This document shows, in pieces, positions 27,703-47,057 of a stretch of 64,000 nucleotides of DNA (the first letter of the stretch is position 1; every line of letters begins with the position of its first letter). Made by a program: the position numbers and the translations under genes. This DNA comes from Planctomycetota bacterium (GTDB lineage: Bacteria; Planctomycetota; Phycisphaerae; Phycisphaerales; Phycisphaeraceae). The stretch spans positions 106,988 through 170,987 of the forward strand of contig JBCCNL010000001.1 of NCBI GenBank assembly GCA_039025855.1, read 5' to 3'. The notes beneath the pieces are model-generated. The model was not told the origin of the DNA. It did not search any database and saw only the letters and a list, made by a program, of their open reading frames with translations.

Positions 27703-27705
27703 GGG

Positions 27706-28497: not shown

Positions 28498-29960
28498 GAG
28501 GGCACCGCCGACAACGCCTCGTCTGGCTGGGCGTGCCGGATCACTTTGCCCAACGCCGTGCGCGGCAGGTGTTCGCAGGCGAAGGTGCGCGGCACCTTCC
28601 ACGGCGCAAGGTGGTGCCGGCAGTGGCGTCGCAGTTCGGCCGCCGTCGGCGGGGCGTCGTCGTCGGTCGGCTCGATCACCGCGTTGAGCCGACTGATCGT
28701 GTGGTTCAGCCGCTCCTCACCGACGAGCGCTTCGCGGACGCCGGGGTGCAGCCGAAGGATGGCCTCGACCTCCATCGGGTTGACCTTGTTCGCACCGACA
28801 TCGATCAGCAGCTTCCGCCGTGCGACAAACCGGAAGTGCCCGTCGCGCCCGCGCACCCCCAGGTCGCCCGTCAGGAAACATCGCCGCCCCGCGATCTCAG
28901 TAAATGGAGGCTCGTGCTCGGCCTCGCCCAACGCGTCGATGTAGCCCGTCATCAGCGACGGGGCATCGACCGCGATCTCGCCCGTCATGCCGTCCGAGAC
29001 CGGCACCCGGCTGTCCGGATCCACGATGTGCATCGCCACCCCCGGCATCGGCCGCCCCAACCACCCGGCATCGTGCCCCGGCTCATGTGGGTCCGCCAAA
29101 CAGACCGAGCCCATCTCCGTCGCCCCGTAGTAGTTCGCCGCTTCAAGCCCGAGCTTGTCCCGGCAGGCATACCACAGCGGCTCGGGCAGCGTCGCACCCG
29201 CACAAAGCAGGCGACGCAGCGTCGGGAACGCCGGCTCACCCGGTTCGCCGCGGTGCATCTGCACGAGCATGTCGACCATGGCCGGGACCGCCGGCAGGAT
29301 CGTCGCACCGGTCTCATGGATCCGCTGCGCCAACCGGTCCGGCGTGAACGCGTTCTCCAGCTCGACACGCGACCCCGCCAACAGCGGCGCAAGCAGCCCC
29401 GCCTCCAGCCCATACGCATGGGTCAACGGCACCGCCGCAAACACGGTGTCGCCAGCCAGGTACCCCACCGACGTGCAGACCTGACACGCCACCGCGTCCA
29501 CCGCCGCCGCCTCCCGCCGCACCACCTTCGAACCGCCAGTCGTGCCCGATGACGGCAGCGCCAGCCAGCCGCGTAGTTCGACCGGTCCATCCGTCCGCTG
29601 CGTGTCCAACGAGGCCCCCTCCGCCACCGACTCCTCCACACGCACCGTCACCCCAACACCCGCCTGCTGCGCCACGCGCCGACGCTCCGCGTCCGGCAAG
29701 CGATCCGACATCGGCAACACCCCATACCCCAGATGCCACAACGCAAACAGGTGCACCACCATCCCCGGCGTCGAGCCGCCCACCAGCCCGACGGGCCGCG
29801 CCGCGTCCGGCCCGGGCAGCTCCGACGCCAACCGCTCCGCGCAGCCCAGCACCAGGCCCGGCAGCTCCCCGTAGCTCACCTCCACCTCACCCAGCCGCAG
29901 CAGAACCCCGGACGGCGACCGCTGCGCGTGCTGTTGAATCGCCTGACTGATCCCTTGCAT
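28494..29960 (-). CDS. AMP-dependent synthetase/ligase (aryl/acyl-AMP ligase; starter-unit activation).
   Basis: 'LPSSGTTGGSKVV' AMP-binding motif plus the A8-A10 core. ATG at 29960 (MQGISQAIQQ...). Confidence 0.8.
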   Translation of the reverse strand: MQGISQAIQQHAQRSPSGVLLRLGEVEVSYGELPGLVLGCAERLASELPGPDAARPVGLVGGSTPGMVVHLFALWHLGYGVLPMSDRLPDAERRRVAQQAGVGVTVRVEESVAEGASLDTQRTDGPVELRGWLALPSSGTTGGSKVVRREAAAVDAVACQVCTSVGYLAGDTVFAAVPLTHAYGLEAGLLAPLLAGSRVELENAFTPDRLAQRIHETGATILPAVPAMVDMLVQMHRGEPGEPAFPTLRRLLCAGATLPEPLWYACRDKLGLEAANYYGATEMGSVCLADPHEPGHDAGWLGRPMPGVAMHIVDPDSRVPVSDGMTGEIAVDAPSLMTGYIDALGEAEHEPPFTEIAGRRCFLTGDLGVRGRDGHFRFVARRKLLIDVGANKVNPMEVEAILRLHPGVREALVGEERLNHTISRLNAVIEPTDDDAPPTAAELRRHCRHHLAPWKVPRTFACEHLPRTALGKVIRHAQPDEALSAVPS

Positions 29961-30266
29961 AGCTCTACTGTTGAAGCGAACCGGAGGCCGCCCCCAGAAT
30001 ATGGCAGAGCAGCGTTTTCCGCCAAATCGCCATGGCCCACCCAGTACAGCACGCAAACGCCCCGCAACCCCCAGCAGGCCCCGCAAAGCCCCAGAAACGC
30101 CTGAATGACCCCTGTTCGTGTCAGACGTGCAACAGAGGGGTCTGCTAGATTGATCCGCGGCAGAGGGGGGGCCTCCCCCCAGCCGATTGACGGATGTTCA
30201 ACCCGTTCCGCGGGTTCTCAGGTCGATCACCGCGTCCCTGCCGCGCCCGCTCCGGAGAGGTGTCCC
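29961..30266. promoter_or_regulatory. Divergent intergenic region between the aryl-polyene operon and the NfeD-flotillin operon. Contains a G7/C6 near-palindrome at about 30163..30181.
   Basis: Non-coding gap of 306 bp. The GGAGAGG SD-like sequence sits just before the ATG at 30267. Confidence 0.3.
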
Positions 30267-30917
30267 ATGGCCGACTTCATCACAGCCTGCACGCAGAGCC
30301 CCACCAACCTCGTGTTGTCCGTGCTCCTGGTGCTCATCATGCTGTACTGGATCGTCGTCATCATCGGGGCCGTCGGCATGGACAGCCTCGACTTCGATTT
30401 CGACTTCGACGGCGATGTCGACCTCGCCCTCGACGGCCACACCAGCCTCTTCGGCGCAGGCATCGGCCTCTCGTTCCTCCGGTTCTTCCACGTCGGCACC
30501 GTGCCGCTGCTCATCCTGGTCTCCGTCTTCGTCCTCATGATGTGGGCCATCGGCGTGATCAGCTACCCGCTCATTGGCAACTGGGGCATCCTCCTCCAAC
30601 TGCTCATGCTGGTCCCCTTCGCGATCGGCGCAATCCTCCTGACCAAAGTCCTCACGCTGCCGCTTCGTGTCTTCTTCGACAAGCTCAAAGCCCAGGAAGC
30701 CGCCGAGCAAAGCGTCAACCTCATCGGCCAACGCTGCGAAGTCGTCTCCCTCACCGCCACCCACCGGCACGGGCAGGTCAAGGTCGCCACCGACGGCTCC
30801 CCCCTGCTGCTTAACGTCGTAACCCCCGACGAATCGATCACCCTGAACAAGGGCGACGAAGCCGTATTGATCTCCCAGGACGCCGACTCAAGCGTCTTCA
30901 CCATCCAGGGGTTTTAA
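30267..30917 (+). CDS. NfeD/YqiJ-like membrane protein (TM helices + C-terminal OB-fold beta-barrel), partner of flotillin.
   Basis: ORF 30105..30917 trimmed to the ATG at 30267 (MADFITACT...), with GGAGAGG upstream. Several TM helices, a 'DFDFDFDGD' acidic loop and a C-terminal 'VKVATDGSPLLLNVV...' OB-like segment. Confidence 0.65.
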   Translation: MADFITACTQSPTNLVLSVLLVLIMLYWIVVIIGAVGMDSLDFDFDFDGDVDLALDGHTSLFGAGIGLSFLRFFHVGTVPLLILVSVFVLMMWAIGVISYPLIGNWGILLQLLMLVPFAIGAILLTKVLTLPLRVFFDKLKAQEAAEQSVNLIGQRCEVVSLTATHRHGQVKVATDGSPLLLNVVTPDESITLNKGDEAVLISQDADSSVFTIQGF

Positions 30918-30941: not shown

Positions 30942-33059
30942 ATGCTGCAACTCCTACCAACCCTCGGCCTCGCCACGCAGACGATGTTCGTCCTCGTTGT
31001 GGCCGGCATCGTCGGCTTCATCCTCGTCGTCGCGATCGTCGCCACCGTCGCCAAGTTCTACGTCAAGGTCGAGCCCGGGACCGCACTGGTCCGCCGCGGC
31101 CAGGGCGGCGGCCAGGTGTCCTTCAACGGCAAGCTGGTCATCCCCATCGCCCACCGCGCCGACATCATGGACATCTCCGTCCGGCGTATCGAGATCTACC
31201 GGCACGGCTCAGAGGGCCTGATCTGTAAAGACAACGTCCGCGCCGACATCAAGGTCGCCTTCTTCGTCCGCGTCAACAACGTCGACAAAGACGTCCTCCA
31301 GGTCGCCGACTCCATCGGCGTCAAGCGTGCGTCCCAGCTCGACGCCCTCGTCGAGCTCTTCGACGCCAAGTTCTCCGAAGCCCTGAAAACCGTCGGTAAG
31401 AAGTTCGACTTCACCGAGCTCTACACCGAACGCGAACGCTTCAAAGACGCCATCCTCGAACACCTCGGCACCGACCTCAACGGCTACGTCCTAGACGACG
31501 CCGCGATCGACTACCTCGAACAGACCGAACTCGGCAAGCTCGACCCCAAGAACATCCTCGACGCCGAGGGCATCAAGAAGATCACCGACCTCACGGCACG
31601 CGAAGCGATCCTTGCCAACGACATCTCCCGCGAGAAAGAAAAGACGATCACCAAGCAGGACGTCGAGGCCCGCGAGGCGATCCTCGAGCTCGAGCGCCAG
31701 CAGGCCGAGGCCGAGGCCAAGCAGGCCCGCGAGATCGCCACCGTCCAGGCCCGCGAGCAGGCCGAGTCCCAGAAAGTCGAAGAGGAGGAGCGGTACAAGT
31801 CGGAGAAGGCCCGCATCGCAACCGAAGAAGAGCTCGGTATCGCCGAAGAAAACAAGCTGCGGCAGATCCTCGTCGCCCAGCGGGCCAAGGAACGCACCGA
31901 CGCGGTCGAGACCGAGCGTGTCCAGCGTGAGCAGGGCCTCGAGATGACCGAACGCGAGCGCGTCGTGGAACTGGCCCGGATCGAGAAGGAGACCGCCCTT
32001 GAGGTCGAACGCAAGAAGATCCAGGACGTCATCCGCGAACGCGTGGTGGTCGAGCGGGCGGTGGTCGAGGAAGAGCAGAAGATCAAGGACACCGAAGAGA
32101 TCATGACTGCCGAGCGGGCCAAGAGCGTGCAGGTCACCACGGCCACGGCACAGGCGGAAGAAGAGAAGATCAAGGAAGTGAAGAAGGCCGAGGCCGCGAA
32201 GCTGGCGAGCCAGTTCGAGGCCGACGAGATCCTGATCGAGGCCGAGGCCAAGCGGGCCGCGGCTGAGAAGGAAGCGCTGGCCAAGATGAAGCTGGCCGAG
32301 GCCCGTCAGGCCGAAGCCGCCGCGGACGGCCTCGCCGAGGCCGAGGTCATGGACGCCAAGGCCGGGGCCGTTGAGAAGTACGGCACCGCCGAGGCCGAGG
32401 TCGTCCAACGCAAGCTCGAAGCCGAGGCCAAGGGCGACTTCGCCAAGGCCGAGGCCATCAAGGCCAAGGGCAGCGCCGAGGCCGACGTCATGCAGGCCAA
32501 GTACGCCGCCGAGGCCGACGGTGTCGCCGGCAAGGCCGAGGCCATGAAGAAGCTCGACGGTGTCGGCAAAGAACACGAAGAGTTCAAGCTCAACCTCGAC
32601 AAACAGCTCCAGGTCGAGCTCAAGCAGATCGACATCCACAAGGACATCGCGGCCGAACAGGCCAAGGTGCTCGGCGAAGCGCTCAAGTCCGCCAACATCG
32701 ACATCGTCGGCGGCGAGTCCGAGTTCTTCGACACCATCATCCACGCGATCACCAAGGGCAAACAGGTCGACCGGCTCGTCGACAACTCCGACCACCTCGC
32801 CCGGCTGTCCGACTCGCTCCTGTCCAGCAACGGCGACGGCACCACCCTCGCCGACCGTATCGGCGACTTCGTCTCCCGCTCCGGTATCGACAGCGACGAC
32901 GTCAAGAACCTCTCGATCGCCGCGCTCATCGGCAAGATGATCGCCGACTCCAGCGACCAGGGCGTCGTCAACGAGCTCAAGAACCTGCTGAGCCTGTCCA
33001 AAGCCGCCGGGTATGCCGACCAGAAACTCGCCAGCCTCGGCGTCAAGGCCCGCGCCTGA
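30942..33059 (+). CDS. Flotillin-like SPFH/band-7 protein with a long EA-rich coiled coil (YqiK-like).
   Basis: N-terminal TM hairpin, then an SPFH domain ('ALVRRGQGGGQVSFNGKLVIPIAHRADIMDISVRRIEI'), then about 400 aa of E/A/K/R coiled-coil repeats. Confidence 0.85.
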   Translation: MLQLLPTLGLATQTMFVLVVAGIVGFILVVAIVATVAKFYVKVEPGTALVRRGQGGGQVSFNGKLVIPIAHRADIMDISVRRIEIYRHGSEGLICKDNVRADIKVAFFVRVNNVDKDVLQVADSIGVKRASQLDALVELFDAKFSEALKTVGKKFDFTELYTERERFKDAILEHLGTDLNGYVLDDAAIDYLEQTELGKLDPKNILDAEGIKKITDLTAREAILANDISREKEKTITKQDVEAREAILELERQQAEAEAKQAREIATVQAREQAESQKVEEEERYKSEKARIATEEELGIAEENKLRQILVAQRAKERTDAVETERVQREQGLEMTERERVVELARIEKETALEVERKKIQDVIRERVVVERAVVEEEQKIKDTEEIMTAERAKSVQVTTATAQAEEEKIKEVKKAEAAKLASQFEADEILIEAEAKRAAAEKEALAKMKLAEARQAEAAADGLAEAEVMDAKAGAVEKYGTAEAEVVQRKLEAEAKGDFAKAEAIKAKGSAEADVMQAKYAAEADGVAGKAEAMKKLDGVGKEHEEFKLNLDKQLQVELKQIDIHKDIAAEQAKVLGEALKSANIDIVGGESEFFDTIIHAITKGKQVDRLVDNSDHLARLSDSLLSSNGDGTTLADRIGDFVSRSGIDSDDVKNLSIAALIGKMIADSSDQGVVNELKNLLSLSKAAGYADQKLASLGVKARA

Positions 33060-33114: not shown

Positions 33115-36100
33115 ATGGCTGAAACTCCAGAAGCCACATCCGAGGCCCTGCCGGAGGACCCCACCCCGTCCCAGGGTCCGAGCCACGACCAGATCGACCA
33201 GGGCGCCTACGAGGTCATCCGACGCCGGCTCGACACGCACGGCCGGGACCTCCGCACCCGCCTCGATCAGCTCAACGCCCGCCGCAAAGAAGTCTTCGGG
33301 TCCATCGACTTCAAGCTGATCGACAACGAGCGGATCACCACGGGCAACAACTGCGTCCCCCGCGACATCGCCGCCGTCGGCGACCGCTTCCTGATGGGCT
33401 TCAACGTCCACTTCGGGCTCAAATCCCACGTCGAGCTCGACGACGTCTTCGCGATCTACCGGTTCGACGGCAGCACCTTCCACGCCGACGACCTTTCGCT
33501 CCTCGATAACGAAGACTTCGCCAAGGACTTCACCGACCTGTTCCGTTTTTACAAGAACGCCAAGTTCGCCAAGTTCTTCCGCGAAGGCCCGCACGTCTAT
33601 ATGAAGTTCCACGTCGGGCGCGACGTCGATGACTTCAAGGCCTTCAAGTGGGCCATCGAGGGCGAGTCCCTCCGCTACATGGGCAACCGCTCCGACCACG
33701 AGGTCCGCTACCCCGAGCAACACGACTTCACCTGGACCCGCGCGACCCGCGAGATGCAGACCCAGGGCGCGTTCCCGCACTACTCGATCGAAGACATCGT
33801 CTTCGTCGAAGCGACAGGTGGCGACTTCACCATCAAGGTCGAAGACAACAGCAACACCGGCGAGGGCATCTACGTCGAGCCGGTCGAGAACGCCGACCAG
33901 TCCCTCGACGACGCCGAGATCCACTACTGCGTCGTCGGGCACATCGTCCTGCTCAAGGTTCGGCCCTATCAGGAACGCAACTTCCGGTACTACATCTTCA
34001 ACGCCAAGCTCCAGCAGGTGCACCGCGAAGACAGCCTCGGCGAGGCCTGCGTCCTCCTCCCCGAGAGCCACGGCCTAGTCTTCTCCCGCGGCTACTACCT
34101 CGCCTCCGGCAAATACCAACGCTTCCCCGGCATCCCCGACGACCTCATCTTCGAACGCAAGATCTCCGCGCCCAACGGCGAAGACTTCGCCTTCCTCTTC
34201 TATCACCGCCGGCAGGGCATCTACGTCATCCTCGCCTACAACCTGATCGACCAGTCGATCGACACCCCGCTGGTCACCAACGGCTACGCATTCTTCGGCG
34301 ACGGCCGCGTCGTGTTCTTCAAGACCCCCGAAGACGCCGAACCCCAGAAACACCACGCGATCCAGGTCTGGCAGACCCCCTTCGTCGGGCCCAACTACGT
34401 CGCGCCGCCCGGCGAGGAGTCCTACCTCTCGAAGATCGGCAACCGCGACATTGTGCGTGGCATGGCCGAGTGCGTTGAGGTCCTCGAACTGCTCTCCCGC
34501 GAAGACCTCTACTCCGACCTCTACGTCGATCTGGTCAAGACCACCTCCGACCTGCTCGACGCCTACTTCTGGCTCGACCACGACGAGTCAGCCAACCTCG
34601 CCGAGCCCCTGGGCGAGATCAAGACCGCCGCCGAAGCCGCGATCGGCGAGTACGAAAAGGTCACCCGGATCCGCCGAAACACCGAGCGGCAGATCGCTGC
34701 CGTGACCCGCGAGGCCGAAGACCTGGTCAACACCAACGCGACCCGGATCTACGACAACATCCTCGTCTACGTCGAAGCCCTCGCGTCGCTCCGAGAAGTC
34801 CGGGGCAAGACCATCGCGCTCAAGGAGCTGCGTTACGCCGACCTCAAGCACATCGACGAACTCGAAGAGCGGGTCAAGGACCAGACCGCGTCACTGTCGC
34901 AGCGCTGCGTGGACTTCCTGCTCGACGAGAAGTCGCTCACGCCCTACCAGGCCGCCGCCGAGGAGCACGACGCAAAGATCGACAGCCTGACCAAGGCGAC
35001 CGACGCGAAGGAGCTCGCCGAGCTGGTCCAGAAGAGCGCCGACGAGCTCGAGATGCTGATCGAGATCGTCGGCAACCTCCGCATCGAAGACACGACCCAC
35101 CGCACCGAGATCGTCGACAACATCTCAGCGATCTTCGGCCAGCTCAACGCCACCCGCACCCGCCTCCGCAACAAGCAGCAGGAGCTCGGCCGGGCCGAGG
35201 GCGTCTCCGAGTTCAACTCCCAGCTCAAGCTGCTGAACCAGTCTGTCGTCAACTACCTCGACCTGTCCGACGACCCGGAGAAGACCGAGCAGTACCTCAC
35301 GAAGGTGATGGTGCAGATCGAAGAGCTCGAGGGCCGGTTCGCCGAGTTCGACGAATTCGTGATCCAGCTCACCGAGAAGCGGGACGAGGTGTACACCGCG
35401 TTCGAGAACCGCAAGCTCCAGCTGGTCGAGAAGCGGAACAAGCGGGCCGACGCACTCGGCCAAGCGGCGGGCCGCATCCTCAGCAGCATCAAGTCCCGGG
35501 TCGACGGGATGGAGCAGATCAACGCGATCAACAGCTACTTCGCCAGCGACCTGATGATCGACAAGGTCCGCGACATCTGCGAACAGCTGGCCGAGCTCGA
35601 CGACACGGTCCGGGTCGACGACATCCAGTCCCGGCTCAAGGCGATCCGCGAGGACGCTGTCCGCCAGCTCAAGGACCGCCAGGACCTCCAGGCCGACGGC
35701 CGAAACACCATCCGCTTCGGGCGACACGTCTTCTCGGTCAACAACCAGGCCGTCGACCTCACCACGATCACCCGCGGCGGCGAGATGAAGCTGCACCTAA
35801 CCGGCACGCAGTTCTTCGAAGCCATCGAAGACCAGCAGCTGCTGGAAACACAAGACGTCTGGTCGCAGGAGGTCGTCTCGGAAGACACCACGGTCTACCG
35901 CGCCGAGTACCTCGCCTACCTCATGCACGAGCAGCTCACACGCGGCGAACCCGCCGAGCTGCAGGCCTTGCTAAAGGAGACCGACGACGACAGCGACCCG
36001 ATCCTCGACGCGGTGCGGTCCTTCATGGGGCCACGTTACAGCGAGGGCTACACCAAGGGCGTCCACGACGCCGACGCCGCCGTCCTCCTGCGGGCCCTGC

Positions 36101-38661
36101 TCGAGATGCACGGCTCTGTCGGCCTGCTCCGCTACCGCAGCGCCGCCCGGGCCATGGCCGGCTACTGGTGGGCCACGCTCGAAGACCGCCGGCTCCGCGA
36201 ACGCCTCACCCATCAGCTCGCCGGCTTCGGCACCGTCGGCGACGTCTTCGCCTCCGCCACCCAGCAACGCGCCTACATCGACGAGCTGTCCCAACACCTC
36301 CACCGCTTCGCCGAAGGCCTCGACCTTTTCGACGCATCGCTCTCATCAGAAGCGGGCGAGTACCTCTTCTATGAGCTGACCGAACCCAAAGACGGGCTCG
36401 TGGTCAGCCCCGAAGCGGCCGAGCTGTTCGACGCCTTCAACAACCACCTCCGCGGCAACCGCTCGCTGAAAAAGTTCCGCGACTCGATCGAAGCCCTCAA
36501 CGACGCCTGGCTCGCCCGCTTCGGCCTCATCCGCGACTGGGCCCACGCCTTCCTCAGCGAGAGCGACGACTTCCCGTCCGACATCTACCGCCACTACGCC
36601 GACGAGTTGGCCCTGCTCCTGCTGCACGGCAAGCCCCCGACCGACCGCATCCACACCGCGAGCGTCCGCCGTGAGCTCGACGGGCTCATCGGCTCACACG
36701 CCGTGATCGATCAGGGCCAATACAGCCTGGACTACAACGAGTTCCTCGCCCGCCTCCGCCACTTTGCCGGCCACACCGTCCCCCGCTTCGAGGCCTACAC
36801 CCACCTGAAACAACAGCTGCTTGATGCTGCCCGCGACGAGATGCGGCTGGACGAGTTCAAGCCCAAGGTCCTCACGTCCTTCGTCCGCAACCAGCTCATC
36901 GACAAGGTCTTCCTCCCACTGATCGGCGACAACCTCGCCAAGCAGATGGGCACCGCCGGGACGGACACCCGCACCGACCGCATGGGCCTGCTCCTGCTCA
37001 TCTCCCCGCCCGGCTACGGCAAGACCACCCTCATGGAGTACATCGCCAACCGCCTCGGCGTCATCTTCATGAAGATCAACGGCCCCGCGATCGGCCACTC
37101 CGTCACCTCCATCGACCCCGCCGAGGCCACCAACGCCGCCGCCCGCGAAGAGCTCGAAAAACTCAACCTCGCCTTCGAGATGGGCGACAACGTCGTGATC
37201 TACGTCGACGACATCCAGCACACCCACCCCGAGTTCCTGCAGAAGTTCATCAGCCTGTGTGACGCCCAGCGGCGCATCGAGGGCGTGTACAAGGGCAAGA
37301 CGCGGACCTACGACTTCCGCGGGCGGAAGGTCGCCGTGGTCATGGCGGGCAACCCGTACACCGAGTCGGGCGAGCGGTTCGCGATCCCCGACATGCTCGC
37401 CAACCGGGCCGACACCTACAACCTCGGCGACATCATCGGCGACCACGCCGAGGCCTTCAAGATGTCGTACCTCGAGAACTGCCTCACCTCAAACCCCGCG
37501 CTCAACGCCCTCGCGTCCCGCAGCCAGAAAGACGTCTATGGCGTGATCAAGATCGCGGAGACCGACAGCCGCGACGGCGTCGAGTTCGAGGGCAACTACG
37601 GCCGGGACGAGCTCGACGAAATGGTCAACGTGATGAAGAAGCTCATCACCGTCCGCGACGTCATCCTGAAGGTCAACCTGCAGTACATCGCCTCGGCCGG
37701 GCAGGAAGACGCCTACCGCACCGAACCCCCCTTCCAACTCCAGGGCTCGTACCGGAACATGAACCGCATCGCCGAGCGGGTGGTCCCCGTGATGAACGAC
37801 GCGGAACTGCAAACGCTCATCTCCTCGAGCTACGAGCAGGACGCGCAGACCCTGACAACCGGTGCCGAGGCCAACCTGCTCAAGCTCCGCGAGATGTTGG
37901 GCTGGATCACCGATGAGGAGGCCGAGCGTTGGGACGACATCAAGCGGACATTTGTCCGCAACAACTCGGTCAACGCGCTAGGCGGTGACGACAAGACGGC
38001 CGCGGTGCTGACGCAGATGGCCGGCCTCAATCAGGGCCTCGGCGACATCGGCAGCGCACTGTCGACCGGCCTCGATGCTTTGAAAGATGCGGATGCATCA
38101 ACGGATGAGGCGGAACCGATCGCGATCGATCTCGCCCCGCTCGCCGAGCAGATGGCGTCGTTCGCCCAGGGGCTCACGGGTATCCGCGAAGCCATGGCGA
38201 CTGTCGCCGAACGCGCCGCGGCGCCAGTCCCACAAGCACCCAAGCCCGTACCGCAGAACGGCCCCGTCGAAGCACGTTTCGACCAGGGCACGCTCGACGC
38301 GATCCAGGCCCTCACCCAGCAGATGGCCGAGCAGGCCCGGGCCGCGCCGCACTCGCCCGCTATCAACGGCGAAGTACCCGTCTCGAACCGCCCCACCGAC
38401 GAACCGGACGACCCCCCGCACGAGATCCGCGTGATCAACAAGATCCCCGCGACGTTCCTCTACGTGATGAAGGAGCAGTTCAAGCTGATGCAGGCCTGGA
38501 TGGAGCCGCTGACCCGGATCACCGCCGACCAGGACGACCAACTCAAGCAGATGCGGGGCTCCATCCAGCAGATCGTCTCGCGGTACGACGACATGATCCA
38601 ACGGCTCGAGAAGAAGCGGGCGTCCGCCGGAGACGAGATCGATGACGACGCCGATGCTTAG
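33115..38661 (+). CDS. 1848-aa protein of unknown function. An AAA_5/MoxR-like ATPase core lies at about residues 1270-1450, preceded by a beta-rich N-terminal region and a long coiled coil.
   Basis: Walker A 'LLLLISPPGYGKTTL', Walker B 'VVIYVDDIQHTHPEFLQKFISL' and sensor-1 'VAVVMAGNPYTE' match the MoxR/AAA_5 pattern. The rest matched no family I recognise. Confidence 0.75.
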   Translation: MAETPEATSEALPEDPTPSQGPSHDQIDQGAYEVIRRRLDTHGRDLRTRLDQLNARRKEVFGSIDFKLIDNERITTGNNCVPRDIAAVGDRFLMGFNVHFGLKSHVELDDVFAIYRFDGSTFHADDLSLLDNEDFAKDFTDLFRFYKNAKFAKFFREGPHVYMKFHVGRDVDDFKAFKWAIEGESLRYMGNRSDHEVRYPEQHDFTWTRATREMQTQGAFPHYSIEDIVFVEATGGDFTIKVEDNSNTGEGIYVEPVENADQSLDDAEIHYCVVGHIVLLKVRPYQERNFRYYIFNAKLQQVHREDSLGEACVLLPESHGLVFSRGYYLASGKYQRFPGIPDDLIFERKISAPNGEDFAFLFYHRRQGIYVILAYNLIDQSIDTPLVTNGYAFFGDGRVVFFKTPEDAEPQKHHAIQVWQTPFVGPNYVAPPGEESYLSKIGNRDIVRGMAECVEVLELLSREDLYSDLYVDLVKTTSDLLDAYFWLDHDESANLAEPLGEIKTAAEAAIGEYEKVTRIRRNTERQIAAVTREAEDLVNTNATRIYDNILVYVEALASLREVRGKTIALKELRYADLKHIDELEERVKDQTASLSQRCVDFLLDEKSLTPYQAAAEEHDAKIDSLTKATDAKELAELVQKSADELEMLIEIVGNLRIEDTTHRTEIVDNISAIFGQLNATRTRLRNKQQELGRAEGVSEFNSQLKLLNQSVVNYLDLSDDPEKTEQYLTKVMVQIEELEGRFAEFDEFVIQLTEKRDEVYTAFENRKLQLVEKRNKRADALGQAAGRILSSIKSRVDGMEQINAINSYFASDLMIDKVRDICEQLAELDDTVRVDDIQSRLKAIREDAVRQLKDRQDLQADGRNTIRFGRHVFSVNNQAVDLTTITRGGEMKLHLTGTQFFEAIEDQQLLETQDVWSQEVVSEDTTVYRAEYLAYLMHEQLTRGEPAELQALLKETDDDSDPILDAVRSFMGPRYSEGYTKGVHDADAAVLLRALLEMHGSVGLLRYRSAARAMAGYWWATLEDRRLRERLTHQLAGFGTVGDVFASATQQRAYIDELSQHLHRFAEGLDLFDASLSSEAGEYLFYELTEPKDGLVVSPEAAELFDAFNNHLRGNRSLKKFRDSIEALNDAWLARFGLIRDWAHAFLSESDDFPSDIYRHYADELALLLLHGKPPTDRIHTASVRRELDGLIGSHAVIDQGQYSLDYNEFLARLRHFAGHTVPRFEAYTHLKQQLLDAARDEMRLDEFKPKVLTSFVRNQLIDKVFLPLIGDNLAKQMGTAGTDTRTDRMGLLLLISPPGYGKTTLMEYIANRLGVIFMKINGPAIGHSVTSIDPAEATNAAAREELEKLNLAFEMGDNVVIYVDDIQHTHPEFLQKFISLCDAQRRIEGVYKGKTRTYDFRGRKVAVVMAGNPYTESGERFAIPDMLANRADTYNLGDIIGDHAEAFKMSYLENCLTSNPALNALASRSQKDVYGVIKIAETDSRDGVEFEGNYGRDELDEMVNVMKKLITVRDVILKVNLQYIASAGQEDAYRTEPPFQLQGSYRNMNRIAERVVPVMNDAELQTLISSSYEQDAQTLTTGAEANLLKLREMLGWITDEEAERWDDIKRTFVRNNSVNALGGDDKTAAVLTQMAGLNQGLGDIGSALSTGLDALKDADASTDEAEPIAIDLAPLAEQMASFAQGLTGIREAMATVAERAAAPVPQAPKPVPQNGPVEARFDQGTLDAIQALTQQMAEQARAAPHSPAINGEVPVSNRPTDEPDDPPHEIRVINKIPATFLYVMKEQFKLMQAWMEPLTRITADQDDQLKQMRGSIQQIVSRYDDMIQRLEKKRASAGDEIDDDADA

Positions 38662-38771: not shown

Positions 38772-39593
38772 ATGTTCAAAGCCATCGGCCGATACTTCCG
38801 TGCACTGGGTTACCTCGTCACCGGCCGTATCGACGCCGCCCGCAGCGCCCTGTCCACCAGCCCCCACGTGGTCAACGCGACCTACGACCAGATCATCGAC
38901 GACAAGAAGAAGTCGATCCAGCAATACAAAGACGCCATCGCCCGGCTGATCGTGCAGCACGAGGGCAAGATGTCCAAGATCAAGGACGAGAGCGACTCGC
39001 TCAACCGCCTCGAACAGATGAAGGAAGGCGCCGCCGCCAAGGCCCGCTCCGTGGTGGCCGAGATGAAGGCCACCGGCGCGACGCTCGAGCAGATCAAGGC
39101 CGGCGAGGACTACCAGAAGTGCATGCTCGCCTACCAGGACTTCTCCTCGAAGATCGAAGAGAAGACCCCGCGGATCGCTGAGCTCGAATCCGATGTGAAG
39201 GAGATGGACGCGACGATCTCGGGGCACAAGCTGCAGCTCACCGAGATGCTGCGGGAGATCGAAAACCTCCGCGGCGAGCAGGCCGAGGCGGTCGCCGAGA
39301 TCATCACCGCCAAGGAGACCGCCGAGCTGAACGACATGCTCTCGGGCATCAGCAAGGACCGCACGTCGCGTGAGCTGGCCGACATGCGTCAGCTCCGCGA
39401 GGAGATGAAGGCCAAGGCCAAGGTCTCCAAGGAGCTGGCCGGCACCGACACGAAGGTGCAGGAGGACGAGTTCGTCCGGTATGCCCAGGAGAGCAAGACC
39501 TCCGATGAGTTCGACGCGTTGATCGGGCTGGCTGAAGAAGCGGACAACGCGACCCCCGACAACCCAGAGCGCGAGCCCCGGCTGCCGGAGTAG
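38772..39593 (+). CDS. PspA/IM30 (Vipp1, ESCRT-III-like) family coiled-coil protein, putative.
   Basis: 273-aa all-helical protein. N-terminal amphipathic 'MFKAIGRYFRAL'. 'KAGEDYQKCMLAYQD' resembles the conserved PspA 'kaGrEDLAReAL' motif. GGAG lies before the ATG. Confidence 0.5.
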   Translation: MFKAIGRYFRALGYLVTGRIDAARSALSTSPHVVNATYDQIIDDKKKSIQQYKDAIARLIVQHEGKMSKIKDESDSLNRLEQMKEGAAAKARSVVAEMKATGATLEQIKAGEDYQKCMLAYQDFSSKIEEKTPRIAELESDVKEMDATISGHKLQLTEMLREIENLRGEQAEAVAEIITAKETAELNDMLSGISKDRTSRELADMRQLREEMKAKAKVSKELAGTDTKVQEDEFVRYAQESKTSDEFDALIGLAEEADNATPDNPEREPRLPE

Positions 39594-39618: not shown

Positions 39619-41436
39619 GTGACGCGTGGTGCCTTTGTCCGGTCGTCGATGAATACTCCCCCGCCACAACACGCCTTCTTCAGCGACCTCGCCCGCATGC
39701 TCAACGCCGGGCAGTCGCGCAGTGTCATGCTGACCGGCGAGGTCCACGACCTGTTCTACCTTGAGGCCGCCGACCGCTACGTCCCGCTGGTCCCCTACCT
39801 CTGCCGGCGATGCTCGGTCGAGGGCGTCGTCCCCCTGGTCTACGAGCTCAACGGCCCGATCCGCTGCACCAACGCCGGCGACCGCAGAACCCTCAAAGAA
39901 GCATGGGTCCGCTGGAAGACCGGCCAATCCCTCGACCAGCTCATCCTCCAATCGCTCAACGACGAGTCGGCCCGCCAGCGCCGCGAGTCCCTCGAAGAAC
40001 AGTTCGACCGACTCACCGCCGAGGCCGCCGGCCGACCCACCGCCGCCCTCGAGATGCTTCGGCAACTCACGCTCTGCTCCCGCGCACAAGCGGCACTCGG
40101 CGGCAAGCGGTTCCGGCTGCTCATCCTGGTCGAGGCCGCCGATATGCTCCTCCCCGCGGCCGACGGCGACATCACTCGGCTCAGCGCCAGCGACCGCCAG
40201 CGCGTCGCCATCTGCCAAGACTGGTTCAGCGATCCCGCCTTCATGGAGGGCGACGACAGCGTGGTACTCCTCGCCGAGTCCCGCAGCGCCATCCACCCCC
40301 GCGTCACCCGCCTGCCCCAGATGCTCACCGTCGAGGTCCCTGCCCCCGACGAGGCCCGGCGTGCCTTCTACATCGAACGCTTCACCCGCGACCGCCCGGT
40401 CAAAATCGACATGGGCACCGACGGCCTCGCCCGCCTCTCCGCCGGGCTTTCGCTGCACGCGTTGCGTCAGCTCCTGGTCGCCTCCGCCCACACCGGCACA
40501 TCCATCACCCACCACGCGGTCATCGACCTCGTCGAGCACCACATCACCAGCGCCCTCGGCGAGGGCGTCGTCGAGTTCAGCAAACCCTCGCACACCCTCG
40601 ACGATGTCGTGGGTCACCGCCGGCTGCGCGCGTTCCTCAACGACGAGCTGATCCCCCGCATCAAGTCGACCGGCGAAGACGCCCTGCCCGGCGCCGCGAT
40701 CGCCGGCCCAATCGGCTCGGGCAAGACCTTCGTCTTCGAGGCCGTCGCGGGCGGGCTCGGCCTCCCCGTCCTCGTGCTCAAGAACATCCGCAGCCAATAC
40801 TTCGGGCAGACCGACGTCATCTTCGAGAAGCTCCGACGCGTCCTCGAAGCGCTCGGCAAGGTCATCCTGTTTGTCGACGAGGCCGACACCCAGTTCGGCG
40901 GCGTCGGCGGCGACGCCCACCCCACCGAACGCCGGCTCACCGGCAAAATCCAGGCTTTGATGAGCGACCCCAAGCTCCGCGGCCGAGTCGTCTGGCTGCT
41001 CATGACCGCACGCATCGAACGCCTCAGCCCCGACATCCGACGCCCCGGCCGAGTGGGCGACCTCATCATCCCCGTGCTCGACCCCGCCCCGGGCAGCGAC
41101 GATCGCCGCGACTTCCTCCGCTGGGTCCTCAAGGGCGTCTTCGACCACCCCGACGACGCACTCCTCAATGAACTCGACCAGCTCACCCCCGGCTACTCCG
41201 CCGCCGCCTTCGCCGCCCTCCGCTCACTGCTCAAAGCCAAGGCCGCCGCGCAAGGCCAGCTCGACGCCGCCACCATCCGTGAGGTCGTCGCCGACGTCAT
41301 CCCCGCCGACATCGGCGACCAACGCGAACGCCAGACCCTCCAGGCCCTGCTCAACTGCACCCGCCGATCACTCCTGCCCGACCCGGACATCGACGAGTCC
41401 ACCCGCGAGGCGTGGCGGCGAGCCCTCGGCCAGTGA
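39619..41436 (+). CDS. Classic-clade AAA ATPase with a ~330-aa N-terminal (degenerate ATPase-like/substrate) domain.
   Basis: Walker A 'GPIGSGKTFV', Walker B 'VILFVDEAD', second region of homology 'RPGRVGDLIIPVLDP'. GTG at 39619; an alternative ATG lies at 39649. Confidence 0.8.
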   Translation: MTRGAFVRSSMNTPPPQHAFFSDLARMLNAGQSRSVMLTGEVHDLFYLEAADRYVPLVPYLCRRCSVEGVVPLVYELNGPIRCTNAGDRRTLKEAWVRWKTGQSLDQLILQSLNDESARQRRESLEEQFDRLTAEAAGRPTAALEMLRQLTLCSRAQAALGGKRFRLLILVEAADMLLPAADGDITRLSASDRQRVAICQDWFSDPAFMEGDDSVVLLAESRSAIHPRVTRLPQMLTVEVPAPDEARRAFYIERFTRDRPVKIDMGTDGLARLSAGLSLHALRQLLVASAHTGTSITHHAVIDLVEHHITSALGEGVVEFSKPSHTLDDVVGHRRLRAFLNDELIPRIKSTGEDALPGAAIAGPIGSGKTFVFEAVAGGLGLPVLVLKNIRSQYFGQTDVIFEKLRRVLEALGKVILFVDEADTQFGGVGGDAHPTERRLTGKIQALMSDPKLRGRVVWLLMTARIERLSPDIRRPGRVGDLIIPVLDPAPGSDDRRDFLRWVLKGVFDHPDDALLNELDQLTPGYSAAAFAALRSLLKAKAAAQGQLDAATIREVVADVIPADIGDQRERQTLQALLNCTRRSLLPDPDIDESTREAWRRALGQ

Positions 41437-42715: not shown

Positions 42716-44794
42716 TCAGAAACTCAACCGCTCCGCGTGCTCTTCATCGCGCACCAACACCTGCCGCCGCTGGTGCGTCGCCATGCGTCCCGCCCGACGC
42801 TGCGCCGCCCGGAACAGCCACCCCAACACCCACCCCGGTAGACGCACCGGCACCGACTTCAACAGCCGCCGACGCACCGGCGTGAACTTCACCAGCAGCG
42901 GATCGTCCAGGCTCGTGATCACCGTCGCCGTCCCCGGCTCGCCCTGCCGTGCGCTGCGACCTTCAAGCTGCCGATCTACCCGGCGTGACTCGTGACGATC
43001 CGTCGCAATCACCGCCAGCCCGCCCCGCTCGACCACGCCCTCAGGCAGCTTGATGTCCGTCCCCCGACCCGCCATGTTCGTCGCCACCGTCACCCGCCCC
43101 AGCTGCCCCGCCTCCGCGACAATCGCCGCCTCCTGCTCGTGCAGGTGCGCGTTTAGCACCGCATGCGGAACGCCCGCGCCCGTCAGCCGAACGCTCAGGC
43201 TCTGGCTGTCATCCACACTCCGCGTGCCCACCAGCACGGGCCGACCCGCAGCGTGCATTTCCCTCGTCAGCTCTGTCACCGCGTCCCACTTGGCATCCAA
43301 CGTCGGCAGCGGCCGAACAGTCTGGGTCTCGCGGCGGCATACCCGGTGCGTCGGGATCCGCACCGTCTGCATCCGATAGGTCCGCCAAAGCTCCGCCCGT
43401 TCTCCCCACGCGGTCCCGGTCATCCCGCTCAGCCGGCGGTACAGCCGGAAGAACCGCTGGAAGCTGATCGCCGCCAGCGTGTGGTTCAGGTCGCTGACCT
43501 CCAGGCCCTCCTTCGACTCGACCGCCTGGTGCAGCCCCGCCTGCCACGTGCGGTCGGGCATCAGCCGGCCCGTGCTCTCGTCCACAATCACCACCTTGCC
43601 ATCCTGCACCACGTACTGGTCGTCGCGCAGATACAGGTACTGCGCCACCAACGCCTGATACACCCGCTCTTCCAGGCGACGCACCGGGCTACGGTCCGCA
43701 TCGCCTCTCGAACCCACCAACCGCTTGATGTGTTGCCGACCCGCCTGCGTCAGGCGCAGGTCCCGGTGCCGCCGATCCAGCCGGAAGTCGCGGTCGGGCT
43801 GCAGCCGCGCCGCCAACGCCGTGGCGTCCCGATACGTGAACTCCCGGGCGTCGCCGCCCGGTGCCGTATCCGCCTTCGGCCCCGAAATAATCAACGGCGT
43901 CGTCGACTCATCAAGCAAGATCGAGTCGGCCTCGTCAATGATCGCCGCCTCACCGCGGAAGAACCGGCCCTGCGACCGCGTCGACTCACCCGTCAGGTTC
44001 CGGGCCAGAACCGAAGCGAGCGGCATCGACGCACGATCGGTCTGCGCCTGTTCCTGCAGCAGGTCACGCAGGTAGTCCGCGGCCGCCTCCTTGTGCGTCG
44101 TGTACGTGATGTCGGCCGCATACGCGCTGCCCCGATCGTGAGGCGGCGTGCCACCCGTGATGTAAGCCACGCGCAGCCCCGCGCCGCCAAACAACGGCTT
44201 GGCCCACTGGGCGTCCCGTTTAGCCAGGTAGTCGTTCACGGTGAAGACGTGACAACCCCGGCCGTGCCACCCGACCAGGCAGGCGGCCAGCGCCGCCACC
44301 AGCGTCTTGCCCTCGCCCGTCGCCATCTCCGTCATCCGGCCATCCAGCAACGCCGCGGCCGCCGCGACCTGCACGCGGTACGCATTGAGCCCCAGGGTCC
44401 GCCGCGCCGCCTCCCGGATCAGCGCGAGCGCTTCAACCCGCTGCTCGACCGTGACCGACCCTCGCCGAAACACCGCACGCTGCTCCGCCAGCCGCCCGCT
44501 CAACGCATCGATGTGCAACTCCCTGCACACCGCCTCCTGCGCGAGCACGCGGTCCGCCAAACGCAGATAACGACGCACCGAACACCGCCCCGCAACCAGG
44601 TGCGACGCGACCCACTCGTACACCGCATCGGCATGCCGACGCGGCTTCGCCGGCTGCCGGTTATGCGATCGGCTCCGCCACGCCTCCCCATCACGCCACA
44701 GCTTCGCCAGCGCCGGCGTCTGCAACTCACCCGGCCGCGCTACGCCCACGGGCTGGTTCGGGTCAGACGGGAACAGCGTGGTCAGGCTCGACAT
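42716..44794 (-). CDS. SecA-like ATPase paralogue (NBD1-PPXD-NBD2-partial HSD; the C-terminal ~200 aa of canonical SecA is absent).
   Basis: 'TEMATGEGKTLVAALA...VNDYLAKRDAQW', 'IIDEADSILLDESTTPLIISG' and 'GMTGTA...ATNMAGRGTDI' align to SecA motor motifs. The ATG at 44794 overlaps the upstream stop by 1 nt (TGATG). Confidence 0.75.
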   Translation of the reverse strand: MSSLTTLFPSDPNQPVGVARPGELQTPALAKLWRDGEAWRSRSHNRQPAKPRRHADAVYEWVASHLVAGRCSVRRYLRLADRVLAQEAVCRELHIDALSGRLAEQRAVFRRGSVTVEQRVEALALIREAARRTLGLNAYRVQVAAAAALLDGRMTEMATGEGKTLVAALAACLVGWHGRGCHVFTVNDYLAKRDAQWAKPLFGGAGLRVAYITGGTPPHDRGSAYAADITYTTHKEAAADYLRDLLQEQAQTDRASMPLASVLARNLTGESTRSQGRFFRGEAAIIDEADSILLDESTTPLIISGPKADTAPGGDAREFTYRDATALAARLQPDRDFRLDRRHRDLRLTQAGRQHIKRLVGSRGDADRSPVRRLEERVYQALVAQYLYLRDDQYVVQDGKVVIVDESTGRLMPDRTWQAGLHQAVESKEGLEVSDLNHTLAAISFQRFFRLYRRLSGMTGTAWGERAELWRTYRMQTVRIPTHRVCRRETQTVRPLPTLDAKWDAVTELTREMHAAGRPVLVGTRSVDDSQSLSVRLTGAGVPHAVLNAHLHEQEAAIVAEAGQLGRVTVATNMAGRGTDIKLPEGVVERGGLAVIATDRHESRRVDRQLEGRSARQGEPGTATVITSLDDPLLVKFTPVRRRLLKSVPVRLPGWVLGWLFRAAQRRAGRMATHQRRQVLVRDEEHAERLSF

Positions 44795-47031: not shown

Positions 47032-47057
47032 TGCAGAACCTCAATCGTCAATCGGCG

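Follow-up and report, generated by a model that had tools for sequence, protein, structure and literature searches.

The 1848-residue ATPase encoded in the window (the whole 64,000-nucleotide stretch of a Planctomycetota contig analyzed here) is, judging from its sequence, a member of the DUF3686 or 'DNA repair ATPase' family, which combines a β-propeller, a coiled-coil region and an AAA+ module, and this family emerges as a strong candidate for a flotillin-dedicated ATPase. The link between the ATPase and flotillin is well supported. As the best explanation we propose that the protein is a soluble cytoplasmic AAA+ machine of the MoxR class serving the flotillin/NfeD platform encoded upstream, as a remodeller or chaperone under membrane stress, a proposal to which we accord roughly an even chance of being right. 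The protein and its operon are an ordinary example of a kind for which an in silico description exists: Ravi et al. (mSystems 2024; PMC11237479) reported an operon type comprising a YqiJ/YuaF gene, a Band-7/flotillin gene and a gene for a β-propeller, coiled-coil and AAA+ ATPase, often with PspA, and proposed from comparative genomics that it uses ATP to assemble or remodel complexes close to the membrane.

An initial sequence-only reading of this DNA had concluded that the size and architecture of the protein fit no family, a view overturned both by this published operon type and by profile searches. The Pfam DUF3686 profile (PF12458) was matched over its entire length (positions 1-448 of 448) by residues 45-485 with an E-value of 3.2e-179, DUF7902 was recovered in the helical stalk (E 1.3e-24) and the C-terminal part matched the Pfam AAA domain, so that the architecture can be assigned after all. 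Its recognition of an 1848-residue reading frame with ATPase motifs was sound: the frame opens with ATG, has a GC3 of 0.91 in line with the other genes of the window, and contains each motif once. More than 1,489 full-length, collinear homologues were recovered, which NCBI labels 'DNA repair ATPase'. The best 120 show 52-82% identity over 89-100% of the query and carry an identical set of Pfam domains, while in an alignment of 68 distant representatives occupancy stays at about 1.0 through residue 1650, distant members being about 1600-1650 residues long; over the N-terminal 700 residues identity to the query falls to 25% among these 68 representative clusters. Searches of PDB sequences, both with the ATPase and with a 73-sequence family profile, reached p97, RuvB and Cdc48 at the level of the P-loop only and nothing more specific than 'AAA+'. 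In the literature searched, DUF3686 or PF12458 is mentioned nowhere, flotillin combined with 'DNA repair ATPase' returned nothing, flotillin combined with MoxR gave irrelevant co-mentions only, and a paper on SPFH proteins of P. aeruginosa does not mention such an ATPase. The coordinates of all features are collected in Table 1.

Table 1. Features of the flotillin-ATPase region, in window coordinates
Feature	Nucleotides	Strand	Residues	Basis or remark
NfeD/YqiJ-YuaF-like small membrane protein, first gene of the triad	30105..30917	+		Pfam YqiJ_N, weak (E 0.001)
Flotillin-type SPFH protein	30942..33059	+	705 aa	Band_7 match
DUF3686-DUF7902-AAA+ ATPase	33115..38661	+	1848 aa	cytoplasmic; NCBI name 'DNA repair ATPase'
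N-terminal helix of the ATPase			aa 24-61	precedes the beta-rich domain
Beta-rich domain, a divergent, approximately seven-bladed β-propeller	33298..34404	+	aa 62-430	AF2, Foldseek, Pfam DUF3686
Helical stalk of spectrin-like three-helix bundles	34405..35694	+	aa 431-860
DUF7902 within the stalk	34933-35184	+	aa 607-690	Pfam
Small beta unit, then second all-helical domain	35695..36849	+	aa 861-905, then aa 929-1245	AF2
AAA+ module, MoxR class by modelled fold	36850..37554	+	aa 1246-1480
Walker A, PPGYGKTT	37006-37029	+	aa 1298-1305	single occurrence
Walker B (DD), VVIYVDDIQHTHPEF	37192-37236	+	aa 1360-1374	single occurrence
Pre-sensor-1 beta-hairpin	37273-37314	+		AF2 model
Sensor-1, AGNP	37345-37356	+	aa 1411-1414	single occurrence
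Candidate arginine finger, MLANRAD	37393-37413	+
Conserved post-AAA helical domain	37555..38034	+	aa 1481-1640	AF2, conservation
Lineage-specific tail	38035..38661	+	aa 1641-1778, then aa 1779-1836	disordered or low-confidence, then a long terminal helix
Divergent PspA/IM30-like coiled-coil protein	38772..39593	+	273 aa	weak profile matches
Second ATPase	39619..41436	+	605 aa	degenerate N-terminal AAA-like half, active classical C-terminal AAA (Cdc48/VAT-like)

The domain architecture was derived from AF2 models with a pTM of 0.55-0.57, in which the geometry between domains is uncertain. The beta-rich domain is modelled with about 28 strands grouped in fours, mostly at a pLDDT of 85-94, and its Foldseek matches in the PDB are generic propellers, namely Elp1, the kelch protein KLHDC3, prolyl oligopeptidase and Ski8 (E 2e-6 to 1e-4, with TM no higher than 0.34). 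Both propeller and stalk are conserved along their full length across the family, the stalk segment at residues 700-850 ranking among the best-conserved parts of the protein. The region spanning residues 861-1245 has the lowest conservation of the structured parts and gave no credible match in Pfam or the PDB; a match of residues 1114-1217 to AP_endonuc_2 (20.8 bits against a cutoff of 31.1) was rejected because the model is all-helical there. The post-AAA helical domain is modelled at a pLDDT of 85-97, with an identity of 0.5-0.75 among close homologues and an occupancy of about 1.0 among distant ones, and the tail that follows has long stretches with a pLDDT below 50 and an occupancy of 0.12-0.40 among distant family members. 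This picture revises two elements of the sequence-only reading. Its single coiled coil of about 600 residues resolves in the models into about 430 residues of bundles, a small beta unit and a second helical domain. Its acidic tail of about 400 residues is conserved and structured over the first 180 or so (the AAA lid and the helical domain, to about residue 1640), and the remaining 200 or so are variable or disordered with a terminal helix and no more acidic than the protein as a whole. The absence of a transmembrane helix was correctly noted, the highest mean Kyte-Doolittle value over 19 residues being just 1.17.

The AAA+ module is the conservation maximum of the whole ATPase, and the Walker A motif, the DD Walker B, the sensor-1 asparagine and the arginine of LANRAD are near-invariant across the 68 representative clusters, such that the enzyme appears to be catalytically competent. 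Its nearest structures are the chaperone-like MoxR remodellers CbbQ and NorQ, at an identity of just 12-16%, and among AAA+ folds its own resembles those of MoxR members most, the model also containing a pre-sensor-1 beta-hairpin; on this modelled fold we place it in the MoxR (AAA_5) clade. When the helix-2 insert and the rearranged pre-sensor-2 lid that typify the clade were considered, the β2-α2 stretch at residues 1323-1340 was seen to be modelled as a loop with no clear hairpin. MoxR ATPases normally require a VWA/MIDAS adaptor. As had been remarked from the sequence, this one is without such a partner: the scanned reading frames of the window (23.8-49 kb), where the frame at 27706-28602 gave no match in the Pfam scan, did not include a VWA gene, and neither did the conserved neighbors in 80 homologous loci. 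Nor does the protein have the compact MoxR format of about 270-500 residues, given that its 1848 residues place about 1,250 on the N-terminal side and about 370 on the C-terminal side of the AAA core.

The state of this catalytic site bears on a reading of the protein as a static structural scaffold, a cytoskeleton-like submembrane spacer in which nucleotide would regulate oligomerisation only and no mechanical work would be done. More than 1,000 of its residues form helical stalk or bundle, Walker B has DD rather than DE, and the putative pore loop 1 (NGPAIGH, after the second β-strand) is without an aromatic residue, all of which would suit such a spacer. Yet a near-invariant catalytic set that includes the sensor-1 asparagine and the putative arginine finger is unexpected for a nucleotide switch. 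The AAA region is also conserved above all other parts of the protein, and we regard the scaffold as improbable.

Analysis of gene neighborhoods uncovered a conserved order on one strand, in which an NfeD/YqiJ-like gene is followed by a flotillin gene and then by the ATPase. The upstream gene of the window had been called a flotillin from its sequence, and this is borne out: its first 253 residues scanned alone match Band_7 with an E-value of 2.3e-11 (44.5 bits, the cutoff being 23.6), and in the protein a hydrophobic N-terminal anchor and the Band_7 domain are followed by a long coiled coil rich in Ala and Glu and by a C-terminal region that is conserved, the Pfam 'Flot' model (PF15975) being absent from its scans. 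It is 50-79% identical to the product of the gene immediately 5' of the ATPase in 68 of the 80 loci, for which PGAP uses the names 'flotillin family protein' or 'SPFH domain-containing protein'. Because upstream sequence is missing in nine of the twelve loci without flotillin, the count is more properly read as 68 of 71 informative loci, spread over about ten phyla; the 80 loci include Planctomycetota, Verrucomicrobiota, Bacteroidota, Desulfobacterota, Kiritimatiellota, Omnitrophota and Clostridia. An NfeD/YqiJ-like homologue lies immediately 5' of flotillin in 57-59 of the 80, and the same triad order is found in annotated plasmid records of Pseudomonas, Streptomyces and Hymenobacter. In the window the NfeD-like gene probably starts at the ATG at 30267 (MADFIT...), the position equivalent to the beginning of the homologue in the closest relative, L001. 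Three loci (L014, L055 and L057) have ample upstream sequence and no adjoining flotillin, implying that the ATPase can occur apart from it.

Downstream of the ATPase no gene is conserved among the 80 loci, and scans for promoters, terminators, Rfam families and tRNAs were of no help in setting the operon boundaries. The conservation profile of the flotillin C-terminus gave no evident short docking motif. An adjoining aryl-polyene-like lipid cluster was considered as a functional partner and rejected because it is not adjacent in L001.

Given that the ATPase gene lies nearly always directly 3' of flotillin, the protein most likely uses ATP to act on the membrane scaffolds that flotillin forms and not on DNA, and the earlier assignment of the gene to a membrane-scaffold cluster is upheld by the same adjacency; the mechanochemical scaffold suggested with it is a hypothesis. 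Were the database name right, the protein would be an SMC- or RecN-like coiled-coil ATPase acting on DNA. Beyond the Pfam and NCBI names themselves ('ATPase involved in DNA repair', 'DNA repair ATPase'), weak RuvB_N matches at the P-loop, the LexA-family regulator upstream of the Bacteroidota operons and an SMC_N gene adjoining the module in one locus might be cited in its favor. The similarity to RuvB and Cdc48, however, covers about 45 residues around Walker A and lies far under the curated cutoffs, the fold is that of a MoxR-like AAA+ protein and not of the ABC/SMC type, and neither Pfam nor structure comparisons revealed a nuclease, helicase or DNA-binding domain in the ATPase. The conserved neighbors are the membrane proteins NfeD and flotillin and include no repair genes, and the name finds no support in the literature searched. 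The sequence-only reading had itself allowed that the protein might prove to belong to a characterised family with a non-membrane genomic context; the 'DNA repair ATPase' family is uncharacterised and its neighbors are membrane-related. We consider action in DNA repair scarcely credible.

The distribution of the module could also point to a mobile stress or defence island, concerned with abortive infection or plasmid-borne membrane protection, with the ATPase as a sensor or effector against phages and other invaders. Megaplasmids of Pseudomonas, Streptomyces, Hymenobacter and Deinococcus carry copies of the ATPase, the flat cross-phylum identity of its homologues (46-56%) suggests horizontal spread, and the HTH or LexA-family regulators resemble phage repressors. 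PspA, too, has a historical link to phage stress. Against this, PADLOC run on five proteins gave generic AAA and coiled-coil matches only (the best, E 1e-7, to the AAA core of IetA), the match of the ATPase being to mad8 at the P-loop region with an E-value of 0.003. Moreover, the surroundings of the triad consist of ordinary housekeeping genes or of variable ones and are not defence islands, and several of the 'plasmid' records are 1.7-11.9 Mb in length and thus chromosomes or chromids. A defence role is accordingly very improbable in our estimation.

Closer to our proposal is the idea of a client chaperone, in which flotillin would merely recruit the ATPase to microdomains where other membrane-associated complexes are folded, assembled or extracted. 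MoxR ATPases do this for Rubisco, NO reductase and similar targets, the relatives CbbQ and NorQ maturing or remodelling specific client enzymes, and β-propellers are generic protein-binding platforms. [quoted passage not shown] But no conserved gene for a candidate client lies nearby, only NfeD and flotillin, and a link to flotillin genes so tight across phyla is what one would sooner expect of direct partners; we see a pure recruitment role as rather unlikely.

The gene downstream of the ATPase had been described as PspA-like, an identification that persists in weakened form. The 273-residue protein scores below the Pfam cutoff for PspA_IM30 (PF04012; E 0.0077, 16.3 bits against 33.9), its profile matches Vipp1 and PspA structures in the PDB colinearly and weakly (E 0.07-0.09), and hhalign against a genuine PspA gives a weak match in the α4-α5 region (E 0.025); in a minority of its homologues PF04012 is present or PGAP has assigned the name 'PspA/IM30 family protein'. 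It occurs 3' of the ATPase in the window, L001, L081 and L082 only, all of them Phycisphaeraceae-type relatives; in a Pirellulales MAG (L083) and a metagenome contig (L084) it has another location. Searches with tblastn and phmmer over the 80 loci found it in L001 only and a homologue of the 605-residue ATPase in none, which places the PspA-like gene outside the universal core of the module. Thus, of the gene context suggested from the sequence, the adjacency to flotillin holds generally, whereas that to this PspA-like gene does not, other lineages having a different PspA upstream or no PspA.

The second ATPase matches the Pfam AAA domain at residues 361-480 (E 1.3e-14), its best PDB matches are VAT, AFG2 and Cdc48 (E 6e-23), and inspection of its N-terminal half reveals no Walker A. 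In L081 and L082 an AAA gene of 614-667 codons likewise follows the PspA-like gene, and the 605-residue and PspA-like proteins are probably partners. It fits the PspA partner with two AAA+ domains, the N-terminal copy inactive, described in PMC11237479. Overall, PspA-type genes accompany the module in three differing arrangements. In Phycisphaeraceae-type genomes the divergent PspA-like and double-AAA genes lie downstream; in Bacteroidota a CesT_Tir_1 gene and a classical PspA lie upstream, with a LexA-family or HTH regulator; and upstream of the module on pQBR103 are genes for PspA, a rhomboid protein, DUF2491, DUF350, DUF1190 and a glutathionylspermidine-synthase-like protein.

We infer, along the following lines, how the flotillin-directed machine would form a ring and dock physically onto flotillin, what its substrate would be and which way it would remodel it. 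The AAA+ modules would form a ring in the manner of MoxR proteins, and each subunit would bring a fused adaptor, the N-terminal β-propeller on its spectrin-like stalk, in place of a separate VWA adaptor; that propeller and stalk stand in for the latter is our conjecture. This adaptor could dock on the cytoplasmic coiled-coil assembly of flotillin, or on proteins held by it, and ATP hydrolysis would then remodel the assembly, driving its assembly, its disassembly or the release of clients during membrane stress. Vps4, which works on polymers of ESCRT-III, and FtsH inside HflK/C cages would follow a similar logic. In the present lineage the module would gain a PspA-like protein of the ESCRT-III superfamily and its own Cdc48-like double-AAA ATPase, with the consequence that the operon would provide two scaffolds at the membrane and an ATPase for each. 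A bolder version, which we offer as possible though on balance doubtful, holds that bacterial flotillin assemblies are not passive but pass through an energy-consuming cycle of their own, that the ATPase is a flotillin-specific motor for assembly or disassembly whose propeller-tipped stalk reaches the coiled-coil dome, and that in Phycisphaeraceae-type genomes the operon specifies a two-scaffold, two-motor unit for membrane repair.

The role of bacterial and eukaryotic flotillins, and how their domes are built, opened and recycled, is a long-standing question, and to our knowledge no flotillin-dedicated ATPase is known experimentally. The candidacy of the present family rests on its adjacency to flotillin in about ten phyla, the repeated recruitment of PspA-type genes, an intact catalytic site and the availability of tractable carriers, homologues being encoded by the Pseudomonas fluorescens plasmid pQBR103 and in Proteus, Vibrio and Streptomyces. 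If demonstrated, this function would correct a misleading 'DNA repair ATPase' label across many database entries and extend the MoxR class to a fused-adaptor form that needs no VWA partner.

Comparison with known systems further clarifies the position of the module. The published operon type shares with the window its three core genes, their order and the architecture of the ATPase, and the Bacteroidota loci reproduce that arrangement exactly, with an HTH or LexA-like regulator, CesT_Tir_1, PspA, NfeD, flotillin and the ATPase, and PLD in five loci. The window differs in lacking CesT/Tir and the upstream classical PspA and in having the PspA-like and double-AAA genes downstream instead; PMC11237479 treats the pairing of PspA with a double-AAA protein as a separate theme.

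With the MoxR proteins CbbQ, NorQ and RavA the ATPase shares the pre-sensor-1 hairpin in the interval between Walker B and sensor-1 and the patterns 'NP...G' and 'L.NRA'; the MoxR proteins act as chaperone-like remodellers and not as proteases. They have, however, about 270-500 residues and a separate VWA/MIDAS partner (CbbO, NorD, ViaA), whereas here about 1,250 residues are fused on the N-terminal side and a VWA gene is lacking. Dynein and midasin likewise join an extended helical lever to an AAA fold of the MoxR type, but they concatenate six AAA modules per chain where the ATPase has one, and homology is confined to the AAA fold.

The AAA+ protease FtsH sits inside cages formed by HflK/C. 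In that system, as we propose for flotillin, a membrane-anchored SPFH and coiled-coil assembly is coupled genetically and functionally to an AAA+ ATPase. Nevertheless, FtsH is a membrane-anchored protease of the classical clade, whereas the ATPase is soluble, of the MoxR clade and without a protease domain; unlike FtsH, a hexamer of it, estimated at about 1.2 MDa, would be too large for the interior of a cage, and homology is again limited to the AAA+ fold.

Vps4/ESCRT-III and bacterial PspA systems offer the same operon logic, a polymer-forming membrane scaffold with a dedicated AAA+ ATPase, and the window additionally has a PspA-like gene followed by a Cdc48/Vps4-class AAA gene, with membership of the 273-residue protein in the PspA family weakly supported. 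An SPFH protein and PspA have been coupled experimentally in B. subtilis, where YdjI connects PspA to the membrane (PMC8581546), and flotillins build large closed membrane domes (PMC13000311). The ATPase differs from Vps4 in not being of the classical clade and in lacking a MIT domain; if it is indeed a motor that acts on flotillin, it would be to SPFH scaffolds what Vps4 is to ESCRT-III.

The large ATPase of the window, a protein of 1848 residues, belongs to a known, experimentally uncharacterised kind of protein, and is not new as a finding. The sequence-only reading had held that its architecture matches no family, which proved wrong: it shows a complete match to Pfam DUF3686, along with DUF7902 and AAA domains (table), and displays every tested feature of the DUF3686 family. 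A search of 5.8 billion proteins recovered more than 1,489 homologues. The 120 best matches, with lengths of 1690-1960 aa, share its Pfam domain set and align to 89-100% of the query at 52-82% identity; those that bear a name are called "DNA repair ATPase" or "MoxR-like ATPase". An exhaustive search with residues 1-700 yielded 283 clusters (50% identity) at E < 1e-30. In an alignment of 68 full-length representatives, reaching down to 25% identity with the query over the N-terminal residues 1-700, collinearity extends to about residue 1650, the motifs SPPGYGKTTL, DDIQH, MAGNPYTE and PDMLANRAD are near-invariant, and lineage-specific sequence is confined to the last ~200 residues. The literature searched contained no mention of DUF3686 or PF12458 and no experimental work on this ATPase. 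A role in DNA repair, as implied by the database name, is unlikely, having failed every test that could be run here. A defence function is likewise unlikely, as PADLOC gave no defence-system assignment.

The gene itself is sound: the ORF begins with ATG and has a third-position GC of 0.91, in line with the real genes of the 66% GC window. Walker A, Walker B and sensor-1 each occur once, as had been noted from the sequence, and their conservation points to an intact MoxR-type active site; that the protein is a static scaffold is unlikely. Membership of the MoxR group in the strict sense is partial: fold and motifs match, the compact size does not, and no VWA partner gene, usual for MoxR ATPases, was found among the ORFs scanned between 23.8 and 49 kb. 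The protein is soluble, with a conserved propeller and stalk, and the reported absence of a TM helix holds (maximum Kyte-Doolittle mean 1.17 over any 19-residue window). AlphaFold2 models built with a 73-sequence alignment have a mean pLDDT of 83 for residues 1-1000 and 80 for residues 951-1848, with moderate inter-domain confidence (pTM 0.55-0.57). They replace the proposed 600-aa coiled coil with helical bundles and a second helical domain; of the supposed 400-aa acidic tail, about half is conserved and structured, and its acidity is no higher than that of the rest of the protein.

Features of the window and of the 1848-aa ATPase (nt, window positions; aa, ATPase residues)
Feature	Position	Strand	Details
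Surface-type protein	nt 9855-13886	+	1343 aa
Aryl-polyene-like cluster	nt 14198-30086	-	
NfeD/YqiJ-like membrane protein	nt 30105-30917	+	first of same-strand run
Flotillin	nt 30942-33059	+	705 aa
Large ATPase	nt 33115-38661	+	1848 aa
Coiled-coil protein	nt 38772-39593	+	273 aa
AAA protein	nt 39619-41436	+	605 aa
SecA-like/PqqD cluster	nt 42716-49952	-	
Polysaccharide-degradation set	nt 50188-63334		
DUF3686	aa 45-485		Pfam, complete, E 3e-179; "ATPase involved in DNA repair"
DUF7902	aa 607-690		Pfam, E 1e-24
AAA, AAA_5, AAA_22	aa 1290-1416		Pfam, weak matches
Walker A	aa 1298-1305		PPGYGKTT
Walker B	aa 1360-1374		VVIYVDDIQHTHPEF
Sensor-1	aa 1411-1414		AGNP
Disordered acidic tip	aa 1-27		AlphaFold2
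Helix	aa 24-61		AlphaFold2
Beta domain	aa 62-430		AlphaFold2; ~28 strands in four-strand groups
Long helices	aa 431-860		AlphaFold2; three-helix bundles
Small beta unit	aa 861-905		AlphaFold2
Second helical domain	aa 929-1245		AlphaFold2
AAA+ core and lid	aa 1246-1480		AlphaFold2
Conserved helical domain	aa 1481-1640		AlphaFold2
Variable stretch	aa 1641-1778		AlphaFold2, low confidence
Terminal helix	aa 1779-1836		AlphaFold2

The ATPase gene is the third of five in a compact same-strand run with intergenic gaps of 24-110 nt. The first, NfeD/YqiJ-like ORF is listed with 54 codons too many at its 5' end; its likely true start, at 30267 (MADFIT...), is indicated by the start of the orthologue in the closest relative (L001) and by the non-membrane, Arg/Pro-rich character of the extension (30105-30266). 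A Pfam scan of the whole flotillin gave no match; its first 253 residues scanned alone matched Band_7 (E 2e-11). Of the claim that the ATPase lies between flotillin and PspA-like genes, the flotillin part stands, while the PspA identity is weakly supported.

Several other gene sets surround this run. Divergent from the flotillin operon lies a lipid pigment cluster of xanthomonadin/aryl-polyene-like type, with genes for a Trp-halogenase-like FAD enzyme, FkbO/Hyg5 chorismatase, ketosynthase, lipid-A-type acyltransferase, LolA-like protein, FabA-like dehydratase, UbiE methyltransferase, GT2, two acyltransferases, MMPL exporter and AMP-binding ligase; its adjacency to the operon is not kept in L001. 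An unusual cluster with a truncated 721-aa SecA-like ATPase (SecA_DEAD, PP_bind and P-loop domains), a 745-aa fusion of PqqD and peptidase M50 and two membrane-fusion proteins of the HlyD family may serve to process and export peptides. The surface-type protein combines cadherin-like/Big_9, Calx-beta, PA14 and glucose/sorbosone dehydrogenase domains, and the polysaccharide-degradation set comprises two sulfatases, GH2, a porphyranase-like protein and an aldehyde dehydrogenase; the two would fit a marine member of the Planctomycetota (Phycisphaerae) as source.

A scan of one genome per GTDB species yielded 495 relatives; the closest is a Phycisphaeraceae MAG at 72% identity, which makes that lineage the probable source of the window. 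We kept 80 loci from Planctomycetota, Verrucomicrobiota, Bacteroidota, Desulfobacterota, Kiritimatiellota, Omnitrophota and Clostridia. The expected adjacency to flotillin is borne out elsewhere: a flotillin 45-79% identical to that of the window immediately precedes the ATPase in 68 of the 80 loci, and itself follows an NfeD/YqiJ-like gene in 57-59. In nine of the 12 remaining loci the available sequence hardly extends upstream of the ATPase; flotillin is truly missing only in L014, L055 and L057. The ATPase is therefore tightly linked to flotillin and NfeD across phyla; clustering all neighbours of the 80 loci revealed no conserved downstream gene. In about ten loci of Bacteroidota, CesT_Tir_1 (E 3e-58) and a genuine PspA (E 6e-41) lie upstream, and five loci include a PLD gene. 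Annotated records agree: a Streptomyces plasmid has a hypothetical gene, "flotillin family protein" and "DNA repair ATPase", and a Hymenobacter plasmid has an opposite-strand "LexA family transcriptional regulator", then "molecular chaperone Tir", "PspA/IM30", DUF1449, a hypothetical protein (the flotillin) and the ATPase. On the Pseudomonas fluorescens megaplasmid pQBR103 (NC_009444.1, 85112-97641), a YjfJKLMC-like block (PspA/IM30, rhomboid, DUF2491, DUF350, DUF1190 and a glutathionylspermidine-synthase-like gene) is joined, through a hypothetical protein, to an SPFH (flotillin) gene and the ATPase, with MvaT/MvaU adjoining; this plasmid offers a genetically tractable setting for testing the family.

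The expectation of PspA neighbours elsewhere holds in that PspA recurs in three different arrangements, and fails in that the window's downstream PspA-like gene follows the ATPase only in close relatives, namely L001 and two Phycisphaeraceae-type contigs (L081, L082). Both contigs repeat the whole five-gene module, L081 with one or two small genes inserted: a 319-aa gene without Pfam match between the ATPase and PspA-like genes (15615-16574) and an 87-aa DUF7710 gene ahead of the double-AAA gene (17717-17980). Several weak but mutually consistent signals link the 273-aa protein to PspA: PspA_IM30 scores below the Pfam cutoff (E 0.008), a 50-sequence profile matches Vipp1 and PspA chains colinearly (E 0.07-0.09), hhalign pairs the alpha4-alpha5 region with Bacteroidota PspAs at E 0.025, and among its 978 homologues a few bear PF04012 or are named PspA/IM30 by PGAP. 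The gene also occurs in a Pirellulales MAG (L083, 9169-10840) and a metagenome contig (L084, 8865-10843), with no flotillin or AAA gene nearby; in both it is preceded by an unannotated ~250-aa gene without Pfam match, which may encode a separate conserved partner. Immediately 3' of the PspA-like gene in the window, a pairing kept in L081 and L082, lies the 605-aa AAA gene. The classical AAA domain of its product (Pfam E 1e-14) is C-terminal, Cdc48/VAT-like and predicted to be active; the best PDB matches are VAT, AFG2 and Cdc48 (E 6e-23), and the N-terminal half resembles a degenerate AAA domain without Walker A. The product may act on the PspA/ESCRT-III-like protein as a bacterial counterpart of Vps4.

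What was seen from the sequence is real, with corrections, and its interpretation as a mechanochemical scaffold within a membrane-remodelling cluster is partly supported. We give an even chance to a reading in which the large ATPase would form a ring of AAA+ modules, with the fused propeller and stalk standing in for the VWA adaptor that other MoxR ATPases use and targeting the flotillin assembly in the cytoplasm, or proteins that this assembly retains, such that ATP hydrolysis would remodel the assembly when the membrane is under stress. This reading has three precedents. HflK/C cages enclose FtsH. YdjI of B. subtilis is described as linking PspA to the membrane (PMC8581546), and flotillins as forming closed 44-mer domes (PMC13000311). 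A variant in which the role of flotillin is only to recruit the ATPase to other clients is less likely. The presence of the module in tractable hosts makes the ATPase an attractive subject for experiments.

This type of operon has been described before, on purely computational grounds, by Ravi et al. (mSystems 2024, PMC11237479), who found CesT/Tir-PspA operons with three further genes, one encoding a YqiJ/YuaF protein, some containing PLD, as well as widespread abbreviated flotillin-YqiJ(-ATPase) operons. As a separate theme they reported PspA paired with a protein of two AAA+ domains, the N-terminal copy being inactive. In the window, these two published themes are united.
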